IMG/VR virus record: IMGVR_UViG_3300013901_000005
Span: 32,001-96,000 of that record
Source of the DNA: a virus
Lineage: Duplodnaviria; Caudoviricetes
DNA length: 64,000 bases
Reading direction: 5' to 3' (one strand)
In this document: positions 6,169 through 14,141 of the stretch, one piece after another
How positions within the stretch are numbered: the stretch's first letter is position 1
How the letters are laid out: each line of letters starts with the position of its first letter
Translations under genes and position numbers: made by a program
Notes under the pieces: model-generated
The model's input: only the letters and a program-made list of their open reading frames with translations
The model's database searches: none
Told to the model about the DNA's origin: nothing

Positions 6169-9100
6169 ATGTTAGTTGCTAGTTTTACATCAAGAATCCC
6201 TACAATGGGTGAAGTTGTTTGCCCATTTAAAATTCTGTGGATTGCTGGGAACCCTCCGATATACTAACATATTTTATTTGGGTAATCAGCAGCCTAGTAT
6301 TTTTAAATAAAGGTTCAACGACTACTAAGCGCAGAATAATATAATGATATAGTCTGATCTTATAAAATGGTAAATTATAAGTTAACAAAATGCAAACTAA
6401 GACATATGAGGATTGGTCAAAGTATCTCGGTGCTCGTCCGAAGCGCCTGGGTGTTGTAGCCCGTATGTACACTGATAACACTTTGAGTTATCTTACCGAT
6501 GGTTTGCGTAATATTTTCTATAAGGATGAGAAGGCAAATACCTTCCAGATTTCTGATTCACTTCTTTTTGAGTGGCAGACAGAGGTAAATAATATTAAGC
6601 ATGTTGAGTTTGCTGACCGCCCGTCTACCGATGGCGCAAATGGTTCGGAAATCACAATGGCATTTGTCGAGAACTATTATAATAAGTTTGATATCTTCCG
6701 TATTGACGGAAGCCGTCAGCAGTGTATCGTAGTTTCTCATCCTATTCGCAAGCGTGATAAATATTTCCAATAATTGTCTCGCTTTAAATAAATTCTTTAA
6801 ATTGCTGGAAAGCATTTATTGTAACCAGCAGCGTGATTGTTGTAACAATAGCGTTCAACGACTAGATGAAAATCATAAATTAATTTTAAAAACTGAATTA
6901 CAAATGAAATATATAGTATTTTTAACAACCGGTCTGAAAACAAATAGAAATCTTGTAGGAGTGCATAAGACAAATACACCTGATATTTTTGATGGATATT
7001 TAGGAGATGGAGTTGAGGCAGACAAAGCCAGTTCATTTATGTATCCGAAATCAGCATTTCAGTATGACGTTAAGATGACCGGAAGTAAGAGTTACCGTAG
7101 AATAACCATTGCAACCTGCGATACATATAAGGAAGCCTGTGCTAAGGCAAATAAGATTATCGACAATATTATAGATGATACATCATATTATAATTTTGAA
7201 AGAATTGATTCCCGTACAGTATATCAGTATGATCTTGTTGGAAAGTTAAAGAGAAAATGGAATTTTATGGAAATTGCAGATTTCTATAATTATCCGCAGG
7301 AAAGAATTAAGTGCTTTATTGATTTAAAAGTATCTTTTTCCGATTCTTTTTGGTCTTTTGATAAGTATATTGATATTAATGAATATAATGATAATTTTAT
7401 AAATCATGTTACATATATTTATAATAAGAACGGGAAACTGATAAAGGTTTACAGCAATTATGATGATGCGATAAAGTTTTTAAATTGTCCGGTAAAACAG
7501 GCGCTGGATGCGATAAAGACACAGAGAGACATAAACGGATATTATATTTCCAATAAACTATACAGCCTTTTTGAACCGAAACCAAGGAGACAGAATAAGT
7601 CACAGATATTCCACGTTTATAAGGATACCGGGGAATATCTCGGAGCGTATAAAGGAAAGACCGTAATGAAGGTTATCAATCAACATTCATGGAAAAAGAT
7701 CTCGAATACTTTCAACCTATATGGTGGGTGGTATAAGGACTTTTATCTTTCACTGGTTACTGTGGATAAAATCCCAGAAAGGCCATGGAAAAAGAAGGTA
7801 GAGGTTTACGACAAGGATGGAAAGCTAATTGAGACTGTTTATAATCTAAATATACTTGGATCAAAATATAAAGTTCCTAAAAACAAAATTGTCGATATTC
7901 AGCAGGGAAATAAATATTATGGTGATTATATATTTAAATACTATAGTAAATGATATAGTCTAAATGAATTATTGGGAGCTCCAGGTACGTCTCATAGATA
8001 ATACCTATGATACTACCTTGGATCTCAATTATTGTAATCCGGGTGATACTACCACTTTCCAATCGGTAGCACAACCTGAATTAAGCGAGGAAGGCGAAGT
8101 AGTTGAAAATGAGTTACTTTCCTCCGTTAATATTAATATTTAACGAAAAATTAAATAAATATTCTTAATTGCTGGAAGGCTGAATTATGCTAATCAGCAG
8201 CGATTCTCTAAATAATAAACAAAGAGAACGTTCAACGACTAATCCAAATGGATGTAGGGGAGGTAACCCCGAAATGGAATAAATCTAAAATTTGAATACT
8301 GCGTCAAGGCAGGATATAAAAACGCAAAACAAGTCACCTTGGGCAAACGAAACGTTTGTAAAGGTTTTGTATTTAAATATTTAGATTAAGATATAGTCTG
8401 AACAATATGGAAACATATTGATTAACACAAATTGTACTCAAAGTTCCAGTCCAATATGGAACTTCATCGCAACTATATGACAACCTTCCGTTGTGACGCA
8501 AGCTGGTCTAGCCTCTACGCACTTCAGGAAGATGTATTTATGCGTATTGCTGACGATACGGATAAATCAAAGGGCGAAGGTGTTTACAAGATGTTGAAGA
8601 AGGAGAAGGAACTCCTCGATACATTTATGTACGCCATGAATACAGGGTTGAGAATAACAGCTCTGTCTAAATTCTTCTAATTGCTGGGAAAACCATTTAA
8701 TGGTTTATCAGCAGCTAAGATATTTAAATTAGTGGGAAACAATTTTTATATAATGTTCAACGACTATCCGAGTAAGGGTAGGTATTTAAAATACCAAAAT
8801 GGAGAATAATTTAAAATATATTGTATATCAAACAATAAATATAGTAAATAATAAAATATATATTGGAATCCACGGAACAAAAGATCCAATGAGATTTGAT
8901 GGATATATAGGAAATGGCGTTAATATAAATTATCCATCAACTTATATGAATCCAAAATTTCCATTTCAATTTGCAGTAAAAAAATATGGAACTTCAAATT
9001 TCAAAAGAAGTGTATTGTATATATATAATACAGAAATTGAAGCTCTTTTAAAAGAAGAGGAAATTGTAAATGAAGATTTTATAAAAAGGAACGACACATA

Positions 9101-12100
9101 TAATATTGCGATTGGCGGCAAAAAACGGCCATACGTTCCTATATACAATAAAATATATCAATTTAATGAAAACGGCAAATTATTAAAAGTATGGAATAAT
9201 ATTTATGAGATTTCTGATTTTTTTGAAACGTGGAAGCAATCAATTTATAGTGCAATTAATAATAAACAAAGATTGTATGGTTTTTATTGGAGTTATCAAA
9301 AAGAAATATGCATAAAAGATTTTTCAAATTCAAATAAAAACAGAAAGGTTTACCAATATTCAAAAGATGGAAAATGTATTGCAATTTATAATAGTATTGG
9401 AGAAGCTAGTAAGATTCTGAATATTTCTTCATCAAATATTATAAATAATGTAAACAATGGGTCTTTAACAAAAAACGATTATTATTTGTCATACAAATTA
9501 TATGATCAATATGTTTGTAGACCAAGAATGGATTTAAAAAATAAAATATTGTATTTGTATGATTTAGACGGAAATTTCATAAATAATACAACATCAAAAG
9601 ATTTCAAAAAAAAATACAATATTCATTCATATAAAGAATTAGAAAATGCAATATTAAACAATAAACCAATTCAAAAAAACCAAATAAAATTAGAAAAGTT
9701 TAATAAAATAGAAAAATATATTCCAATTAATAAAAAGAAAAAAGTTGAGATTTATAAAACAAATAGAGATTTTGTCGCAGAATTTGACAGTGTATCAAAT
9801 GCATGTAGACAATTAAAATTAGACCGCTCAACAATTTCAAAAATATTAAGAGGATGTGCCAAACGAACAAAAGGATATACAATTAAATATAAAAATTAAA
9901 GATATAGTCTACTCTTTATAGTAATATAAAGTATTTAAGTGTTATTAAATAAAGGAAATGTGGATTAATTAATAGTTCACAAAAAATTTCTCTAATTGCT
10001 GGAAAACCTTTAGTGAGACAACCAGCAGCTAAAAATGAAAATCATTTTGGGTTCAACGACTAATTGAAAAATAATAATAAATAAAAAGGGAAATAAATTA
10101 TGGAATATATAGTTTACAAAACAATAAATAAAATTAATAATAAATTTTATATAGGAGTTCACAAAACTGAAAATTCTAAAATATTTGATGGATATATAGG
10201 ATGTGGAATATATATTAATAAAGCAAAATATATCAAATCGCCAAATACATATTTTTTAAAAGCAATTAAAAAGTATGGTACTGATAATTTTTATAGAGTA
10301 GTTTTAAAATCTTTTAATAATTATAATGATGCTCTAGATCTGGAAAGATGGCTAGTTACTGAAAAGTTTATTAAAGATAATAATAATTATAATTCTGCTA
10401 TTGGTGGAGGGTTGTCTCCAAAAAATAATAAAGAAATATATCAATATGACTTAAATGGTAAATTAATTAAAAAGTGGAACTCTATGGTTGATATTAATAA
10501 TGCATTTAAAACCCATATTCAAATGAGTTATATTATTAATAATAGAAGAAGTTTTGCCGGATTTCTTTGGTCATTTAATAAGAATATAAATATTGATGAG
10601 TATATTTTGCATAATAATAGAGGGTTTATATCTCAATATGATTCTAAATTTAATTTTATCAGAAAATTTAAATCTTCTAAAGAAGCATCTAAAATTTTAA
10701 ACATACCCTTAGGATCAATAATTTCTAGTGTTTTTAGAAGAAAAAAAATAGACGGTTTTTATTTTTTAAAAGCTGATTTTGATATTGACGAACTTTTTAA
10801 AGATGAAATAAATTATGTTTATCGACAAACAAAAATATTTCAATATAATGATGATGGGGACTTTATAAATGTATATAAATCGATTTTAAATTGTTCAAAA
10901 GAATTAAATTTATCCTATAATAAAATAAAAGAAATTATTAATAAAAAGGAAAAGTTTAATAATTATTATTTATCATATAGATATGATACATCATATTTTA
11001 ATATAAAATTTCCAAATAAAAAAGTAATAATAAAAGTTTTGCAATATGATAAAAATAATCGGTTTATTAAAGAATGGGATGATATTAAACAATTATTAAA
11101 AGAATACCCAGAAGCACTAAAAGTTTGTAGAAACAAATTAAAGACACATAAAAATTATATATTCAAATATAAAATAATTTAAAGATATAGTCTGATCTTT
11201 GCAGTAATGTAAAGTTAACATAAATGGTTAATGGCAAGGCAACAATCGTAGAGCCTGATACTCAGAGACCTATAAAAATATATGTAGGGGTAATCAGTGA
11301 TGATTATTATAAAATCTTTTGAATTGCTGGAAATCCAAATGGATAATCAGCAGCTATATTGATATATCAGTAAAGTTCAGAGACTATCCGGTTATGGAAT
11401 ACATAAAATATGGAAGCAAAAGATAACTCATAAAAATTAAATAAAGTAATTTATGAAATATATAGTATATTGTACAATAAATTTAATTAATAATAAAATT
11501 TATATTGGAGTTCACAAAATTGATCCCAAACAAGTTAATGATTATTATTTAGGTTGTGGATGTTTTAGCAATAGTCCAAAATCGTATAATAAAAGAAATA
11601 CTGCTTTTTGCTGTGCAGTCTCAAAATATGGGCCATCAAATTTTAAAAGGGAGACAATTAAAGAATTTGACACATTAGAAGAGGCGCTTGAACTAGAAAA
11701 AGAAATTGTTAATAAAACATTCCTAAAAAGAAAAGATATTTATAACCAAATAGAAGGTGGTGGTTATCCACCAACTTTAGAAAAAAAAGTGTATCAATAT
11801 AATTTAAATGGATACTTTATGATGGAATGGAAATCTATAAAATCTATTACTAATTATTTTAATATAAATAAAGATAGAATAAATATGGTTATAAAATCAA
11901 AACGATCTTTTAATGCTTGTTATTGGTCATATAAATACGTAATACGCTTAGATACCTCTAATTATCGACCGAGTTCAAGAGGCAGTATAAGAGTCTTTTC
12001 TAAAGATAAAAAATTATTATATAATTTTGAGAATACAACAAAAGCAGCAGAATTTTTAAATATTAGACGAGAAAAAATAACAAATGCTATATATGGTAAA

Positions 12101-14141
12101 TATGCAACAAATAATTATTATTTTTTAAAAGAAGACGAAGATATTGAAACATATTTAAGTAAAAATAATAAAAATCAACATATATTTCAATATGATGAAA
12201 ATGGAAGTTTATTAAACGAATATAACAATGTTGCAGAAATAAGAAAAAATATAAATATAATAAAAATGATTTAAAAAGAGCAGTTAAAAATAATAGTTTA
12301 TTAAATGGTTTTTATTGGTCTTATTTTAAATGTAATAACATATTAAATAATGAGTTAATGATATAGTCCGACACTACTAGTAATAGTAGATAACAGAGAA
12401 TGATATATAGGCGAGGGAGCAATCCCTCAGATTGAGGCCGCAGCCAACAAATACGTTTATAATGACAAGCCCAGTCTGCCGTTGTTCAATATGATTATGG
12501 CAGATATGTCAGACAAGTGTCAGAGCGATACAGGCAATCACTACGCTTTTGTGGTGAATCGAATTCTTTGGAATGATATTAACCTCGTTCTTGGTGAGTT
12601 CCTTTCACACTATCGCACTGATGGTTCATTTATGTACTCAAAGTCAGCTAACCAGGGCAAGGGTGGTTACGTAAAAGTAGGTGCCACATATGATACATAT
12701 GAGTTCGCTAGTTAATGCCGGCGAATAAAAATTTATTAAATTGCTGGAAAATTATATAAAAATATAAACTATAACATAATTGGAAACAGTATGTGTGAAT
12801 GTTTAAAAATTATATTTTATAATAACCAGCAGCAAACTTCCTAAACAATAAAATTGCATGGAAGCTGTTCAACGACTATTTTAACAAAATAAGAAATATC
12901 TAAAAGAATAAACGTTATGAATTTAAAATATATATTATACATTACAATTAATACTATTAATGGAAAGTTTTATATTGGTGTACATAAAACAAATCCAGAA
13001 GTTTTTGATGGATATATTGGAAATGGAATATATCGTCAATCAGAAGCTGTGAAAAATACACCATTCCATAAAGCAGTAAAGAAATATGGGTATGATAATT
13101 TTAAAAGAACTATTATAAAAATTTTTCCATTTGATGAACAAGGATATACTGATGCATATAAATTAGAATCAATTTTAGTTAATGAAACTTTATTAAAAAA
13201 CAAAAATTGTTATAATTGTTCACTAGGCGGATTTGGTAGTATAAATAATGATAATTTAAAAAAAATTTATAAATTTGATTTAAATGGAAATTATTTAAGA
13301 AGTTTTAAGTCTGTTAGAGAAGCTGCTTTATCTATTAATCCAGAAAACATTTATAATACAATCAAATCAATAAGAAATAATTGTTTAGGTATATCAAAAA
13401 GTAGTTTTGGATATTATTGGAGCTATATAAAGCAATTTAATTATTCAAATAACAATAGCAAAAAAATATCTCAATATACTTTATCTGGAAAATTTATTAA
13501 AAACTATAATAGTATTGAAGAAGCACAATTTGATTTACATTTAAATTCAATTGCATAGGCGATTTCAAAGCATTATAATTGTGGAGGTTTTCAATGGAGA
13601 TTTTATAATGGATCTACAAAAGATATCACTCCTTTAATAAACGAACGAAATAAGAATAAAATATTACCAATATTAATGATAGATATAAAAACTGGAAATA
13701 CAAAAAAATATAGTAGTATTCAAGAATGTGTAATAAAAAATCCTCAATTAAGAAAAACTCAAATAAACAGAGTTATAAAAAAAATAATTAAGTCACATAA
13801 AGGATTTTATTTTAAATATGATAACGATAATATAGTCTAAATTGGGCAACTCTATAACCTTTATGGTTGATAGAGCACTCACTCGCGAATATCCTACAAA
13901 GGGATATGGTGTATGTATCGACTTGACCGCTGACAAGACAACTGGTATGCCAGCTATTGGCAAATTTAGTCTTACCGGAAAAGACTTTATGACAAATAAG
14001 GTCATTGGTGTAGGCGGTTATGACGGAAAAACCTCTGGTGAGGTAGCCAGCAATGTGGCTGGCAGTAAGCTGATAATGAGTGGGTATGCAGGTATTGCAT
14101 GCTTTGCTCCGTATCGTTCAGTTATTTTGCGTCAGGCTTAA
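6169..14141 (+). CDS. major capsid protein, 8 exons / 7 group I introns, 475 aa after splicing
   Basis: join(6169-6210,6393-6758,7967-8095,8435-8648,9940-9965,11227-11273,12403-12709,13845-14141) = 1428 nt, one open frame of crAss MCP-like sequence; junctions supported by P1 (and mostly P10) pairing. Confidence 0.88.
6211..6392 (+). mobile_element. group I intron 1 (182 nt, no ORF)
   Basis: P ATTGCTGGGAA, Q AATCAGCAG, R GTTCAACGACTA, S GATATAGTC; exon ATGGGT pairs with GCCCAT (U.G at the splice site); ends in G. Confidence 0.88.
6393..6758 (+). CDS. major capsid protein exon 2
   Basis: QTKTYEDWSKYLGARPKRLGVVARMY...HPIRKRD. Confidence 0.85.
6759..7966 (+). mobile_element. group I intron 2 (1208 nt)
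   Basis: P/Q/R/S motifs; P1 AAGCGTGAT/GTCTCGCTT; perfect 9-bp P10 CCAATAATT/AATTATTGG. Confidence 0.9.
6904..7953 (+). CDS. intron-encoded GIY-YIG-like protein with NUMOD1-type repeats (degenerate active site)
   Basis: MKYIVFLT...LVGVHKT...FDGYLG aligns with the sibling endonucleases; VYQYDLxGKL repeats. Confidence 0.8.
   Translation: MKYIVFLTTGLKTNRNLVGVHKTNTPDIFDGYLGDGVEADKASSFMYPKSAFQYDVKMTGSKSYRRITIATCDTYKEACAKANKIIDNIIDDTSYYNFERIDSRTVYQYDLVGKLKRKWNFMEIADFYNYPQERIKCFIDLKVSFSDSFWSFDKYIDINEYNDNFINHVTYIYNKNGKLIKVYSNYDDAIKFLNCPVKQALDAIKTQRDINGYYISNKLYSLFEPKPRRQNKSQIFHVYKDTGEYLGAYKGKTVMKVINQHSWKKISNTFNLYGGWYKDFYLSLVTVDKIPERPWKKKVEVYDKDGKLIETVYNLNILGSKYKVPKNKIVDIQQGNKYYGDYIFKYYSK
7967..8095 (+). 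CDS. major capsid protein exon 3
   Basis: NYWELQVRLIDN...QPELSEEG. Confidence 0.82.
8096..8434 (+). mobile_element. group I intron 3 (339 nt, IA2-like, endonuclease remnant in P8)
   Basis: P/Q/R/S motifs, P7.1/P7.2 hairpins, GAAA-capped P9; P1 GAGGAAGGC/ACTTTCCTC. Confidence 0.85.
8435..8648 (+). CDS. major capsid protein exon 4
   Basis: YSKFQSNMELHRNYMTTFRCD...YAMNTG. Confidence 0.85.
8649..9939 (+). mobile_element. group I intron 4
   Basis: P1 ACAGGGT/GCTCTGT; P10 AATAACA/TGTTATT; P/Q/R/S motifs. Confidence 0.9.
8799..9899 (+). CDS. GIY-YIG homing endonuclease with NUMOD1-type repeats
   Basis: YIVY...KIYIG, FKR, EALLKE, YN motifs; C-terminal HTH and KGYTIKY. Confidence 0.88.
   Translation: MENNLKYIVYQTINIVNNKIYIGIHGTKDPMRFDGYIGNGVNINYPSTYMNPKFPFQFAVKKYGTSNFKRSVLYIYNTEIEALLKEEEIVNEDFIKRNDTYNIAIGGKKRPYVPIYNKIYQFNENGKLLKVWNNIYEISDFFETWKQSIYSAINNKQRLYGFYWSYQKEICIKDFSNSNKNRKVYQYSKDGKCIAIYNSIGEASKILNISSSNIINNVNNGSLTKNDYYLSYKLYDQYVCRPRMDLKNKILYLYDLDGNFINNTTSKDFKKKYNIHSYKELENAILNNKPIQKNQIKLEKFNKIEKYIPINKKKKVEIYKTNRDFVAEFDSVSNACRQLKLDRSTISKILRGCAKRTKGYTIKYKN
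9940..9965 (+). CDS. major capsid protein exon 5 (26 nt)
   Basis: Gives (L)LLNKGNVD in frame between introns 4 and 5. Confidence 0.8.
9966..11226 (+). mobile_element. group I intron 5
   Basis: P1 TGTGGAT/GTTCACA; P/Q/R/S motifs; GTAA-capped P9; terminal G. Confidence 0.88.
10100..11182 (+). CDS. GIY-YIG homing endonuclease with NUMOD1-type repeats
   Basis: YIVY...FYIG, FYR, DALDLE, YN motifs. Confidence 0.88.
   Translation: MEYIVYKTINKINNKFYIGVHKTENSKIFDGYIGCGIYINKAKYIKSPNTYFLKAIKKYGTDNFYRVVLKSFNNYNDALDLERWLVTEKFIKDNNNYNSAIGGGLSPKNNKEIYQYDLNGKLIKKWNSMVDINNAFKTHIQMSYIINNRRSFAGFLWSFNKNINIDEYILHNNRGFISQYDSKFNFIRKFKSSKEASKILNIPLGSIISSVFRRKKIDGFYFLKADFDIDELFKDEINYVYRQTKIFQYNDDGDFINVYKSILNCSKELNLSYNKIKEIINKKEKFNNYYLSYRYDTSYFNIKFPNKKVIIKVLQYDKNNRFIKEWDDIKQLLKEYPEALKVCRNKLKTHKNYIFKYKII
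11227..11273 (+). CDS. major capsid protein exon 6 (47 nt)
   Basis: VNGKATIVEPDTQRP(I). Confidence 0.8.
11274..12402 (+). mobile_element. group I intron 6
   Basis: P1 CCTAT/GTAGG; P10 ATATAT; R variant GTTCAGAGACTA; S GATATAGTCC. Confidence 0.88.
11453..12274 (+). CDS. GIY-YIG homing endonuclease (C-terminus probably frameshifted)
   Basis: YIVY...IYIG, FKR, EALELE, YN motifs; repeat-like coding continues in another frame after about 12250. Confidence 0.85.
   Translation: MKYIVYCTINLINNKIYIGVHKIDPKQVNDYYLGCGCFSNSPKSYNKRNTAFCCAVSKYGPSNFKRETIKEFDTLEEALELEKEIVNKTFLKRKDIYNQIEGGGYPPTLEKKVYQYNLNGYFMMEWKSIKSITNYFNINKDRINMVIKSKRSFNACYWSYKYVIRLDTSNYRPSSRGSIRVFSKDKKLLYNFENTTKAAEFLNIRREKITNAIYGKYATNNYYFLKEDEDIETYLSKNNKNQHIFQYDENGSLLNEYNNVAEIRKNINIIKMI
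12403..12709 (+). CDS. major capsid protein exon 7
   Basis: YIGEGAIPQIE...YVKVGATYDTYEFA. Confidence 0.85.
12710..13844 (+). mobile_element. group I intron 7
   Basis: P1 TTCGCT/GGCGAA; P10 TGCC/GGCA; extended P5 region; R GTTCAACGACTA; S ATATAGTC. Confidence 0.88.
12917..13840 (+). CDS. GIY-YIG homing endonuclease (one in-frame TAG=Gln)
   Basis: Track ORF 12917..13558 continues through TAG with CGGFQWRFY...HKGFYFKY to TAA 13838-13840. Confidence 0.85.
13845..14141 (+). CDS. major capsid protein exon 8
   Basis: GNSITFMVDRALTREYP...APYRSVILRQA, then stop. Confidence 0.85.
   Translation, partial: GNSITFMVDRALTREYPTKGYGVCIDLTADKTTGMPAIGKFSLTGKDFMTNKVIGVGGYDGKTSGEVASNVAGSKLIMSGYAGIACFAPYRSVILRQA

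Follow-up and report, generated by a model that had tools for sequence, protein, structure and literature searches.

Several group I introns in one gene are known from the Staphylococcus phage Twort, whose orf142 carries three, and from fungal mitochondria, where cox1 can hold up to about 19, with endonucleases that are mostly of the LAGLIDADG type and often act as maturases. In phage T4, the td, nrdB and sunY genes have one group I intron each, with endonucleases of the I-TevI type (GIY-YIG) (reviewed in PMC2988022). Among crAss-like phages, Yutin et al. (2021) described members of the Zeta group with intron-dense genes for the major capsid protein (MCP) (PMC7886860), and the published examples have three or four introns (PMC7886860; review PMC10136315). 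The intron endonuclease gp210 of phage PhiPA3, which is encoded in one intron of an RNA polymerase gene, has been shown by experiment to interfere with a co-infecting phage (PMC11620839).

Here we describe a locus that very probably extends this series. The window, i.e. the whole 64-kb stretch of DNA that was analyzed, comprises bases 32001-96000 of a complete IMG/VR virus record of 155,233 bp, a metagenome assembly from an uncultured virus. Its source is a crAss-like gut phage of about 155 kb. With a probability of about 93%, the locus at 6169-14141 (plus strand) represents the phage's sole major capsid gene, into which seven related mobile group I introns have moved. An earlier reading of the sequence alone (the original prediction) had pointed to known intron-rich crAss lineages, and such lineages are indeed on record for the Zeta group (PMC7886860). 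The present phage probably belongs to this group as well; indirect indications are its genome length (Zeta- and Delta-group genomes span 145-192 kb), a high density of introns and a tRNA that suppresses TAG.

Results

The capsid gene is divided into eight exons

The plus-strand open reading frames between 6169 and 14141 are short frames that look like pieces of one protein, alternating with five long ORFs, each of which opens with a KYIVY...YIGVH motif. Homology, reading frame and group I rules together set the junctions, with about 25 relatives from a scan of IMG/VR (L numbers) as the reference sample. The 7973 nt resolve into eight exons and seven introns, the exons being the following:

6169..6210, plus strand: MCP exon 1, 42 nt, codons 1-14; 80% identity to L009 (no introns) at the N-terminus, 95.7% nucleotide identity to L003
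6393..6758, plus strand: MCP exon 2, 366 nt; tblastn against intron-less homologues E 1e-59; pN/pS 0.064 against L003
7967..8095, plus strand: MCP exon 3, 129 nt; 78.6% amino acid identity to L009 residues 138-179
8435..8648, plus strand: MCP exon 4, 214 nt; 83% amino acid identity to L009 residues 180-251, 96% nucleotide identity to L003
9940..9965, plus strand: MCP exon 5, a 26-nt micro-exon; codes for (L)LLNKGNVD, compared with LLLNKGNID in L009
11227..11273, plus strand: MCP exon 6, a 47-nt micro-exon; matches L009 residues 260-275
12403..12709, plus strand: MCP exon 7, 307 nt; tblastn match to L009 residues 276-377, 90% nucleotide identity to L003
13845..14141, plus strand: MCP exon 8, 297 nt including TAA; 81.6% amino acid identity to L009 residues 378-475

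Joined, the exons give 1428 nt, or 475 codons and a TAA, with no internal stop; the homologues are also 475 amino acids long, and the frame is exactly the one that had been predicted. The introns, 182 to 1291 nt in size, make up 6545 of the 7973 nt, or 82.1%, where 82% had been claimed. A spliced alignment at the nucleotide level with the intron-less L009 coding sequence as query, which is independent of the first map, reproduced all eight exons, with boundaries shifted by no more than 1 nt. In the DNA of intron-less alleles, none of the seven joins is interrupted. Across the junction of exons 5 and 6, the site of intron 5 in the window, L003 has a contiguous and identical join, and in exon 6 a split codon (AU/A) restores ...RPIYIGEG. 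An ATG at 6390, which would place intron 1 in the leader, was rejected as the start, since the conserved N-terminus seen in the homologues has its counterpart in exon 1. Reading through from the exons into the introns leads to a stop after 0-18 codons, the tails ending in Y, Q, I, F, D, F and S, and none having an ssrA-like Ala-Ala end.

The spliced product is a major capsid protein under purifying selection

Aligned with the 475-residue proteins of intron-less L009, L013, L015 and L005, the spliced product is colinear, without a single gap column, at 76-78% identity. The capsid annotation itself comes from the intron-less homologues, which carry the family profile matches: Pfam PF23898 Crass_capsid ("Crassvirus major capsid protein") recognizes L001 with 52.2 bits and L009 with 47.7 bits (cut-off 27), and L009 also matches PHROG 11589, "major head protein". 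The spliced product and L009 share 77% of their residues in a gapless alignment, and on this basis the identification as major capsid gene in the original prediction stands. Taken alone, the single exons of the locus match nothing in Pfam or PHROGs. With tblastn, the pieces find two uncultured fecal phages, MT835470 and MT835492 (unannotated), which have the protein uninterrupted within about 1.4 kb at 51-58% identity and are the only GenBank phage records to share it; megablast of the locus against GenBank phages gave no match. Searches of the MCP homologue and of the intron 5 endonuclease against solved structures gave no sequence match.

No second MCP copy was found in the genome, and the exons have pN/pS values of 0.03-0.10 against L003 (which itself has seven introns), indicating strong purifying selection. 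Given a single-copy gene whose exons evolve under such selection, a seven-intron layout predicts that capsid synthesis must depend on all seven splicing events. This dependence had been proposed from the start, and the lack of any other MCP copy in the genome supports it.

Seven group I introns interrupt the gene

The introns are listed below; half-core scores refer to the Rfam group I model RF00028, for which the threshold is 50 bits, and P/Q/R/S positions mark the core elements.

6211..6392, plus strand: intron 1, group I, 182 nt, no ORF; RF00028 full model 62.6 bits; terminal G at 6392
6759..7966, plus strand: intron 2, group I, 1208 nt, endonuclease gene; Rfam 5' core 34.6 bits; P/Q/R/S at 6800/6825/6853/7953
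8096..8434, plus strand: intron 3, group I, 339 nt, no ORF; RF00028 full model 68.3 bits
8649..9939, plus strand: intron 4, group I, 1291 nt, endonuclease gene; Rfam 36.9 (5') and 25.3 (3') bits; P1 ACAGGGU/GCUCUGU
9966..11226, plus strand: intron 5, group I, 1261 nt, endonuclease gene; Rfam 32.4 (5') and 23.2 (3') bits; P1 UGUGGAU/GUUCACA
11274..12402, plus strand: intron 6, group I, 1129 nt, endonuclease gene; Rfam 45.9 (5') and 20.4 (3') bits
12710..13844, plus strand: intron 7, group I, 1135 nt, endonuclease gene, enlarged P5; P/Q/R/S at 12739/12826/12867/13830; P1 UUCGCU/GGCGAA

The R element GTTCANVGACTA occurs exactly seven times in the 64-kb window, always on the plus strand and inside the locus, where 0.01 occurrences would be expected by chance; for the combined P-Q-R pattern the count is six against an expectation of zero. 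P, Q, R and S follow each other in order in all seven introns, and GACUA (in R) can pair with UAGUC (in S) to form P7 in each of them. Every intron ends in G, and six of the seven are immediately preceded by a U. In six introns, inspection by eye gives a P1 of 5-9 bp with U.G at the splice site; in intron 1, for instance, P1 is AAUGGGU/GCCCAUU, with the final U of exon 1 paired to G. Solitary P or S motifs elsewhere in the window (at 2935, 4398, 21482, 27924 and 32867) were set aside as parts of no complete core. Hairpins resembling P7.1/P7.2 are seen in introns 3, 4 and 6.

Covariance searches agree for six of the introns. RF00028 scores introns 1 and 3 above threshold as a whole, and it detects the 5' half-cores of introns 2, 4, 5 and 6 (32-46 bits, E 1e-5 to 1e-9) and the 3' ends of introns 4, 5 and 6 (20-25 bits), the match being split in these four because an ORF lies between R and S, in P8. 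Intron 7 has no Rfam match, because its P5 is about 80 nt long; it was assigned to group I by its motifs and a hand-read fold with P1, P4, an extended P5 and P6, in which P3 (UUUAUU/AAUAAA) and P7 are also recognizable by eye. Our own covariance model, built from the other six cores, found intron 7 weakly (28.1 bits, E 0.026), and it found no further introns of the same family elsewhere in the window. The claim of seven P/Q/R/S cores and seven group I introns is thus borne out by P1, core motifs and terminal G in all seven, while the group I model search recovers six of them, two above threshold as whole introns, and leaves intron 7 unmatched. From these features we infer that the seven introns are probably self-splicing. 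The exact 46-nt join of exons 4, 5 and 6 was not found in metagenome contigs, a result that is uninformative on splicing.

Intron 3 has an unusual pair at its 5' splice site

In the 8-bp P1 of intron 3, C8095 faces A8116, so that C.A takes the place of the near-universal U.G. Seven relatives (L007, L010, L012, L017, L019, L020 and L036) have an intron at the same site, all with U.G. Among these orthologues the guide strand covaries with synonymous exon variants (GAAGAGGGU/GCUCUCUUC, GAGGAAGGU/GCUUUCCUC, GAGGAGGGU/GCUCUCCUC), which supports P1. All three contigs with the same P1 as the window have T/G, and C.A was seen in the present genome only. C.A is the best-tolerated stand-in for U.G at the 5' splice site (PMC11417360), and the double change suggests that the wobble geometry is being kept; intron 3 could nevertheless splice less well with this pair. 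Alternative 5' splice sites after U8103 or U8104 were discarded: one disrupts the reading frame, the other inserts three residues found in no homologue, and both ignore the 8-bp P1 register common to the orthologues.

Five introns carry related endonuclease genes

ORFs of 273-366 codons are found in introns 2, 4, 5, 6 and 7, and none in introns 1 and 3. The five are paralogous putative homing endonuclease genes (HEGs, numbered by intron), 26-40% identical to each other and all with a NUMOD1 domain:

6904..7953, plus strand: HEG2 (intron 2), 349 aa; NUMOD1 3e-07; 29% identical to HEG4, E 7e-34
8799..9899, plus strand: HEG4 (intron 4), 366 aa; TIGR01453 "group I intron endonuclease", 60.6 bits (cut-off 56.05)
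10100..11182, plus strand: HEG5 (intron 5), 360 aa; PHROG 314 "homing endonuclease" 2e-19; NUMOD1 7e-12
11453..12274, plus strand: HEG6 (intron 6), 273 aa; N-terminal domain Pfam GIY-YIG (PF01541), 25.7 bits (cut-off 22.6); NUMOD1 2.6e-12
12917..13840, plus strand: HEG7 (intron 7), 307 codons, interrupted once in frame by a TAG (13556-13558)

HEG4 has NUMOD1 and I-HmuI NUMOD-like domains in addition, and HEG5 reaches 7.5e-06 with TIGR01453, under the cut-off. For HEG7 the catalytic-domain match has a significant E-value and lies under the cut-offs; HEG2 gave no match to the GIY-YIG catalytic domain, its motif being degenerate. The ORFs start in or just after P3' (the ATG of HEG4 at 8799 is inside P3') and stop at or inside the 3' strand of P7, through which the HEG7 ORF passes.

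TAG is probably read as glutamine in this phage, because the genome encodes a tRNA with anticodon CTA and codon 15 of the MCP gene is TAG in relatives and CAA here. Some of the endonucleases may be inactive, as HEG2 has lost recognizable GIY-YIG motifs and HEG7 has an in-frame TAG. Endonuclease activity and homing as such are predicted from the gene sequences.

Close relatives differ in intron number, position and endonuclease content

The number of introns in the MCP gene ranges from zero to about nine among the relatives:

L009, L013, L015, L001 and others: no MCP introns
L006, L010, L012 and L036: one MCP intron
L003 and L004: seven MCP introns, including a 14-nt micro-exon, at sites partly different from those of the window
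L007: probably about nine MCP introns

The original prediction had called seven introns in this gene extreme. This holds against the published three or four (PMC7886860, PMC10136315), but not against the phage's own relatives, as L003 and L004 have seven and L007 about nine. Across the sample, the 1428-nt frame has roughly 15-20 insertion sites, an approximate count. L003 and L004 are the closest relatives, and one of their sites is 9 nt upstream of the intron 3 site of the window and has its own P1. Their orthologues of introns 1 and 2 are 88.7% identical and 78% identical (over 1202 nt), respectively. Intron 4 has an orthologue in L004 (90.5% over 1287 nt), intron 6 in L014 (69% over 1106 nt), and intron 7 in L007 (68% over 1149 nt) and L006, while intron 5 has none at the same site among the sampled relatives.

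The same site can be occupied by an intron with or without an ORF, as seen for intron 3 in comparison with L010 and for introns 4 and 6 in comparison with L003, where both copies lack the ORF. Intron 3 of the window corresponds to the L010 intron minus an ORF of about 650 nt, the endonuclease gene, and the 3' parts are 95.6% identical. At the nucleotide level, exon 3 has only about 70% identity with every sampled relative; for the remaining exons, identity to L003/L004 is 85-96%. Homing in which adjoining exon sequence is co-converted is expected to leave a mosaic of this kind.

Discussion

Together, our data are best explained by selfish homing introns that have accumulated in a gene both conserved and essential. 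In the model that we propose, the gene would be transcribed as a precursor of about 8 kb, and in each intron P1 would arise by pairing of the last 5-9 exon bases with an internal guide. Free guanosine would attack after the wobble-paired U (in intron 3, after C paired with A), and the terminal G of the intron would then direct exon ligation, so that the 475-codon frame would exist only once all seven introns have been excised. The five endonucleases, putatively of the I-TevI-like GIY-YIG/NUMOD kind and encoded in P8, most likely cleave capsid alleles that lack the intron in relatives infecting the same cell, and repair would copy the intron with flanking exon sequence into the cut allele. Such a homing cycle would explain both the build-up of introns and the differences between sister phages.

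It is possible, by analogy with PhiPA3 gp210, that the endonucleases have a competitive role. The HEG-bearing introns might jointly serve as a weapon, or as a block that excludes rivals, when sister phages infect the same cell, conferring a competitive advantage rather than acting as pure parasites. This would apply especially to the cluster at coding positions 751, 777 and 824, whose members are spaced by exons of only 26 and 47 nt: each endonuclease would cut the intron-less capsid alleles of rivals, neighboring insertions would destroy each other's target sites, and the cluster would spread as one unit by co-conversion. We put this forward tentatively and consider it rather unlikely.

The original prediction also saw in the seven splicing events a possible timing checkpoint. 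In this reading they would have evolved, beyond parasitism, as a gate on the timing or dosage of capsid synthesis. The single-copy gene with its need for all seven splicing events would suit such a gate; translation and ribozyme folding could compete, given that the HEGs start in or next to P3' and the HEG7 ORF runs through P7; and HEG7 would need TAG read-through by the phage tRNA. However, close relatives make the same protein with 0, 1, 3, 7 or about nine introns at differing sites, no given intron and no intron number is conserved among them as one would expect of a regulator, and the pattern of HEG presence and absence is that of a selfish homing cycle. We have found nothing that supports a checkpoint, and regard it as very improbable; the polymorphism of introns and HEGs appears to fit selfish homing elements better.

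It is scarcely credible that the locus is a chimera put together from strain variants during assembly, or that it belongs to a defective phage whose MCP gene is decaying into a pseudogene: the record is an uncultured IMG/VR assembly and exon 3 has a history different from the other exons, but the eight exons are ordered, complete, free of stops and frameshifts and gapless against homologues, pN/pS is 0.03-0.10, comparable genes with 7-9 introns occur on independent contigs from other samples (L003/L004 from one dataset; L007, L059 and L061 from others), and there is no other MCP copy.

Selfish homing introns thus remain our preferred reading, and the locus is a very intron-rich case of a published phenomenon with an ordinary mechanism. 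With four-fifths of its length intron, the locus illustrates the load of presumably self-splicing introns that an essential phage gene with very high expression can bear while selection on the protein stays intact. For the annotation of capsid genes in large crAss-like phages it means that base-level exon maps are needed, because gene callers and protein-domain searches miss small exons and ORF-less introns. The sister genomes, with zero to about nine introns at about 15-20 sites, form a natural series for the study of intron gain, HEG loss and exon co-conversion, and the C.A pair of intron 3 provides a natural test of wobble geometry at this position.

Like Twort orf142 and mitochondrial cox1, the capsid gene is conserved, highly expressed and packed with several group I introns, the set of which varies by strain; Twort has fewer introns, and cox1 is organellar with mostly LAGLIDADG endonucleases. 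With the T4 introns it shares the conserved core, probable GIY-YIG endonucleases with separate DNA-binding modules, the P7.1/P7.2-like hairpins (introns 3, 4 and 6 here) and an in-frame stop soon past the 5' splice site, whereas T4 has one intron per gene and the present phage seven within 1.4 kb of coding sequence, with the ORFs in P8. Like PhiPA3 gp210, which is encoded in an intron of an essential gene and is able to cleave a related phage's allele that has no intron, the endonucleases described here might act on the alleles of relatives. The closest match is with the MCP genes of Zeta and Delta crAss-like phages (PMC7886860, PMC10136315), which have in common with ours the Crass_capsid family, HEG-bearing group I introns and TAG recoding. 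The published example consists of five fragments, with three introns recognized by protein domains; here eight exons and seven introns are mapped at base level, and the map takes in two ORF-less introns and micro-exons of 26, 42 and 47 nt, which protein-domain searches would miss.

Reading of TAG codons

Sequence evidence argues for glutamine as the probable reading of TAG: a tRNA with the anticodon CTA, a single in-frame TAG in the endonuclease gene of the seventh intron (I7) of the major capsid protein (MCP) gene, an MCP codon 15 that is TAG in the relatives L005, L008, L016 and L018 versus CAA in this genome, and four in-frame TAGs in the MCP gene of MT835492.

Window 13556-13558, in-frame TAG in the I7 endonuclease gene
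Whole genome (G000) 151589-151662, outside the window, tRNA with anticodon CTA
L002:2456-3874, MT835492 MCP gene with the four TAGs

Exon 3 and intron ends

Exon 3 (window 7967-8095) has only about 70% identity to each sampled relative, whereas its neighbouring exons share 89-96% with L003 and L004, a contrast that points firmly to a recombination mosaic with a donor outside the sampled relatives.

AAUG forms the 3' end of four introns out of the seven:

Window 6388-6392
Window 7962-7966
Window 11222-11226
Window 12398-12402

In the phase-0 introns I1, I2 and I5, the AUG of this tail shares its frame with the following exon, and unspliced RNA could in principle, to take I1 as the example, give a capsid protein started at 6390 and lacking the first 14 residues. 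Probably, the AAUG ends are no more than a conserved 3' tail (UAACAnAAAUG) in this family of introns.

Introns elsewhere and in relatives

The genome has three more group I intron matches, all outside the window and on the opposite strand, one of which exceeds the Rfam threshold:

G000 98597-98784(-)
G000 109197-109413(-)
G000 119387-119553(-)

Both closest relatives have a 14-nt micro-exon, flanked by two introns, near codon 455:

L003:13381-13394
L004:15609-15622

In L011 (IMGVR_UViG_3300045988_125590), the MCP frame, otherwise intron-less, contains one additional stop codon in frame at about codon 315 (L011:10898-10900). The MCP gene of L007 (IMGVR_UViG_3300017569_000030; L007:9717-17785) has micro-exons of about 23-33 nt and appears to hold some nine group I introns. 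Our own covariance model supports seven of them, while the support for two comes from motifs together with a spliced alignment.
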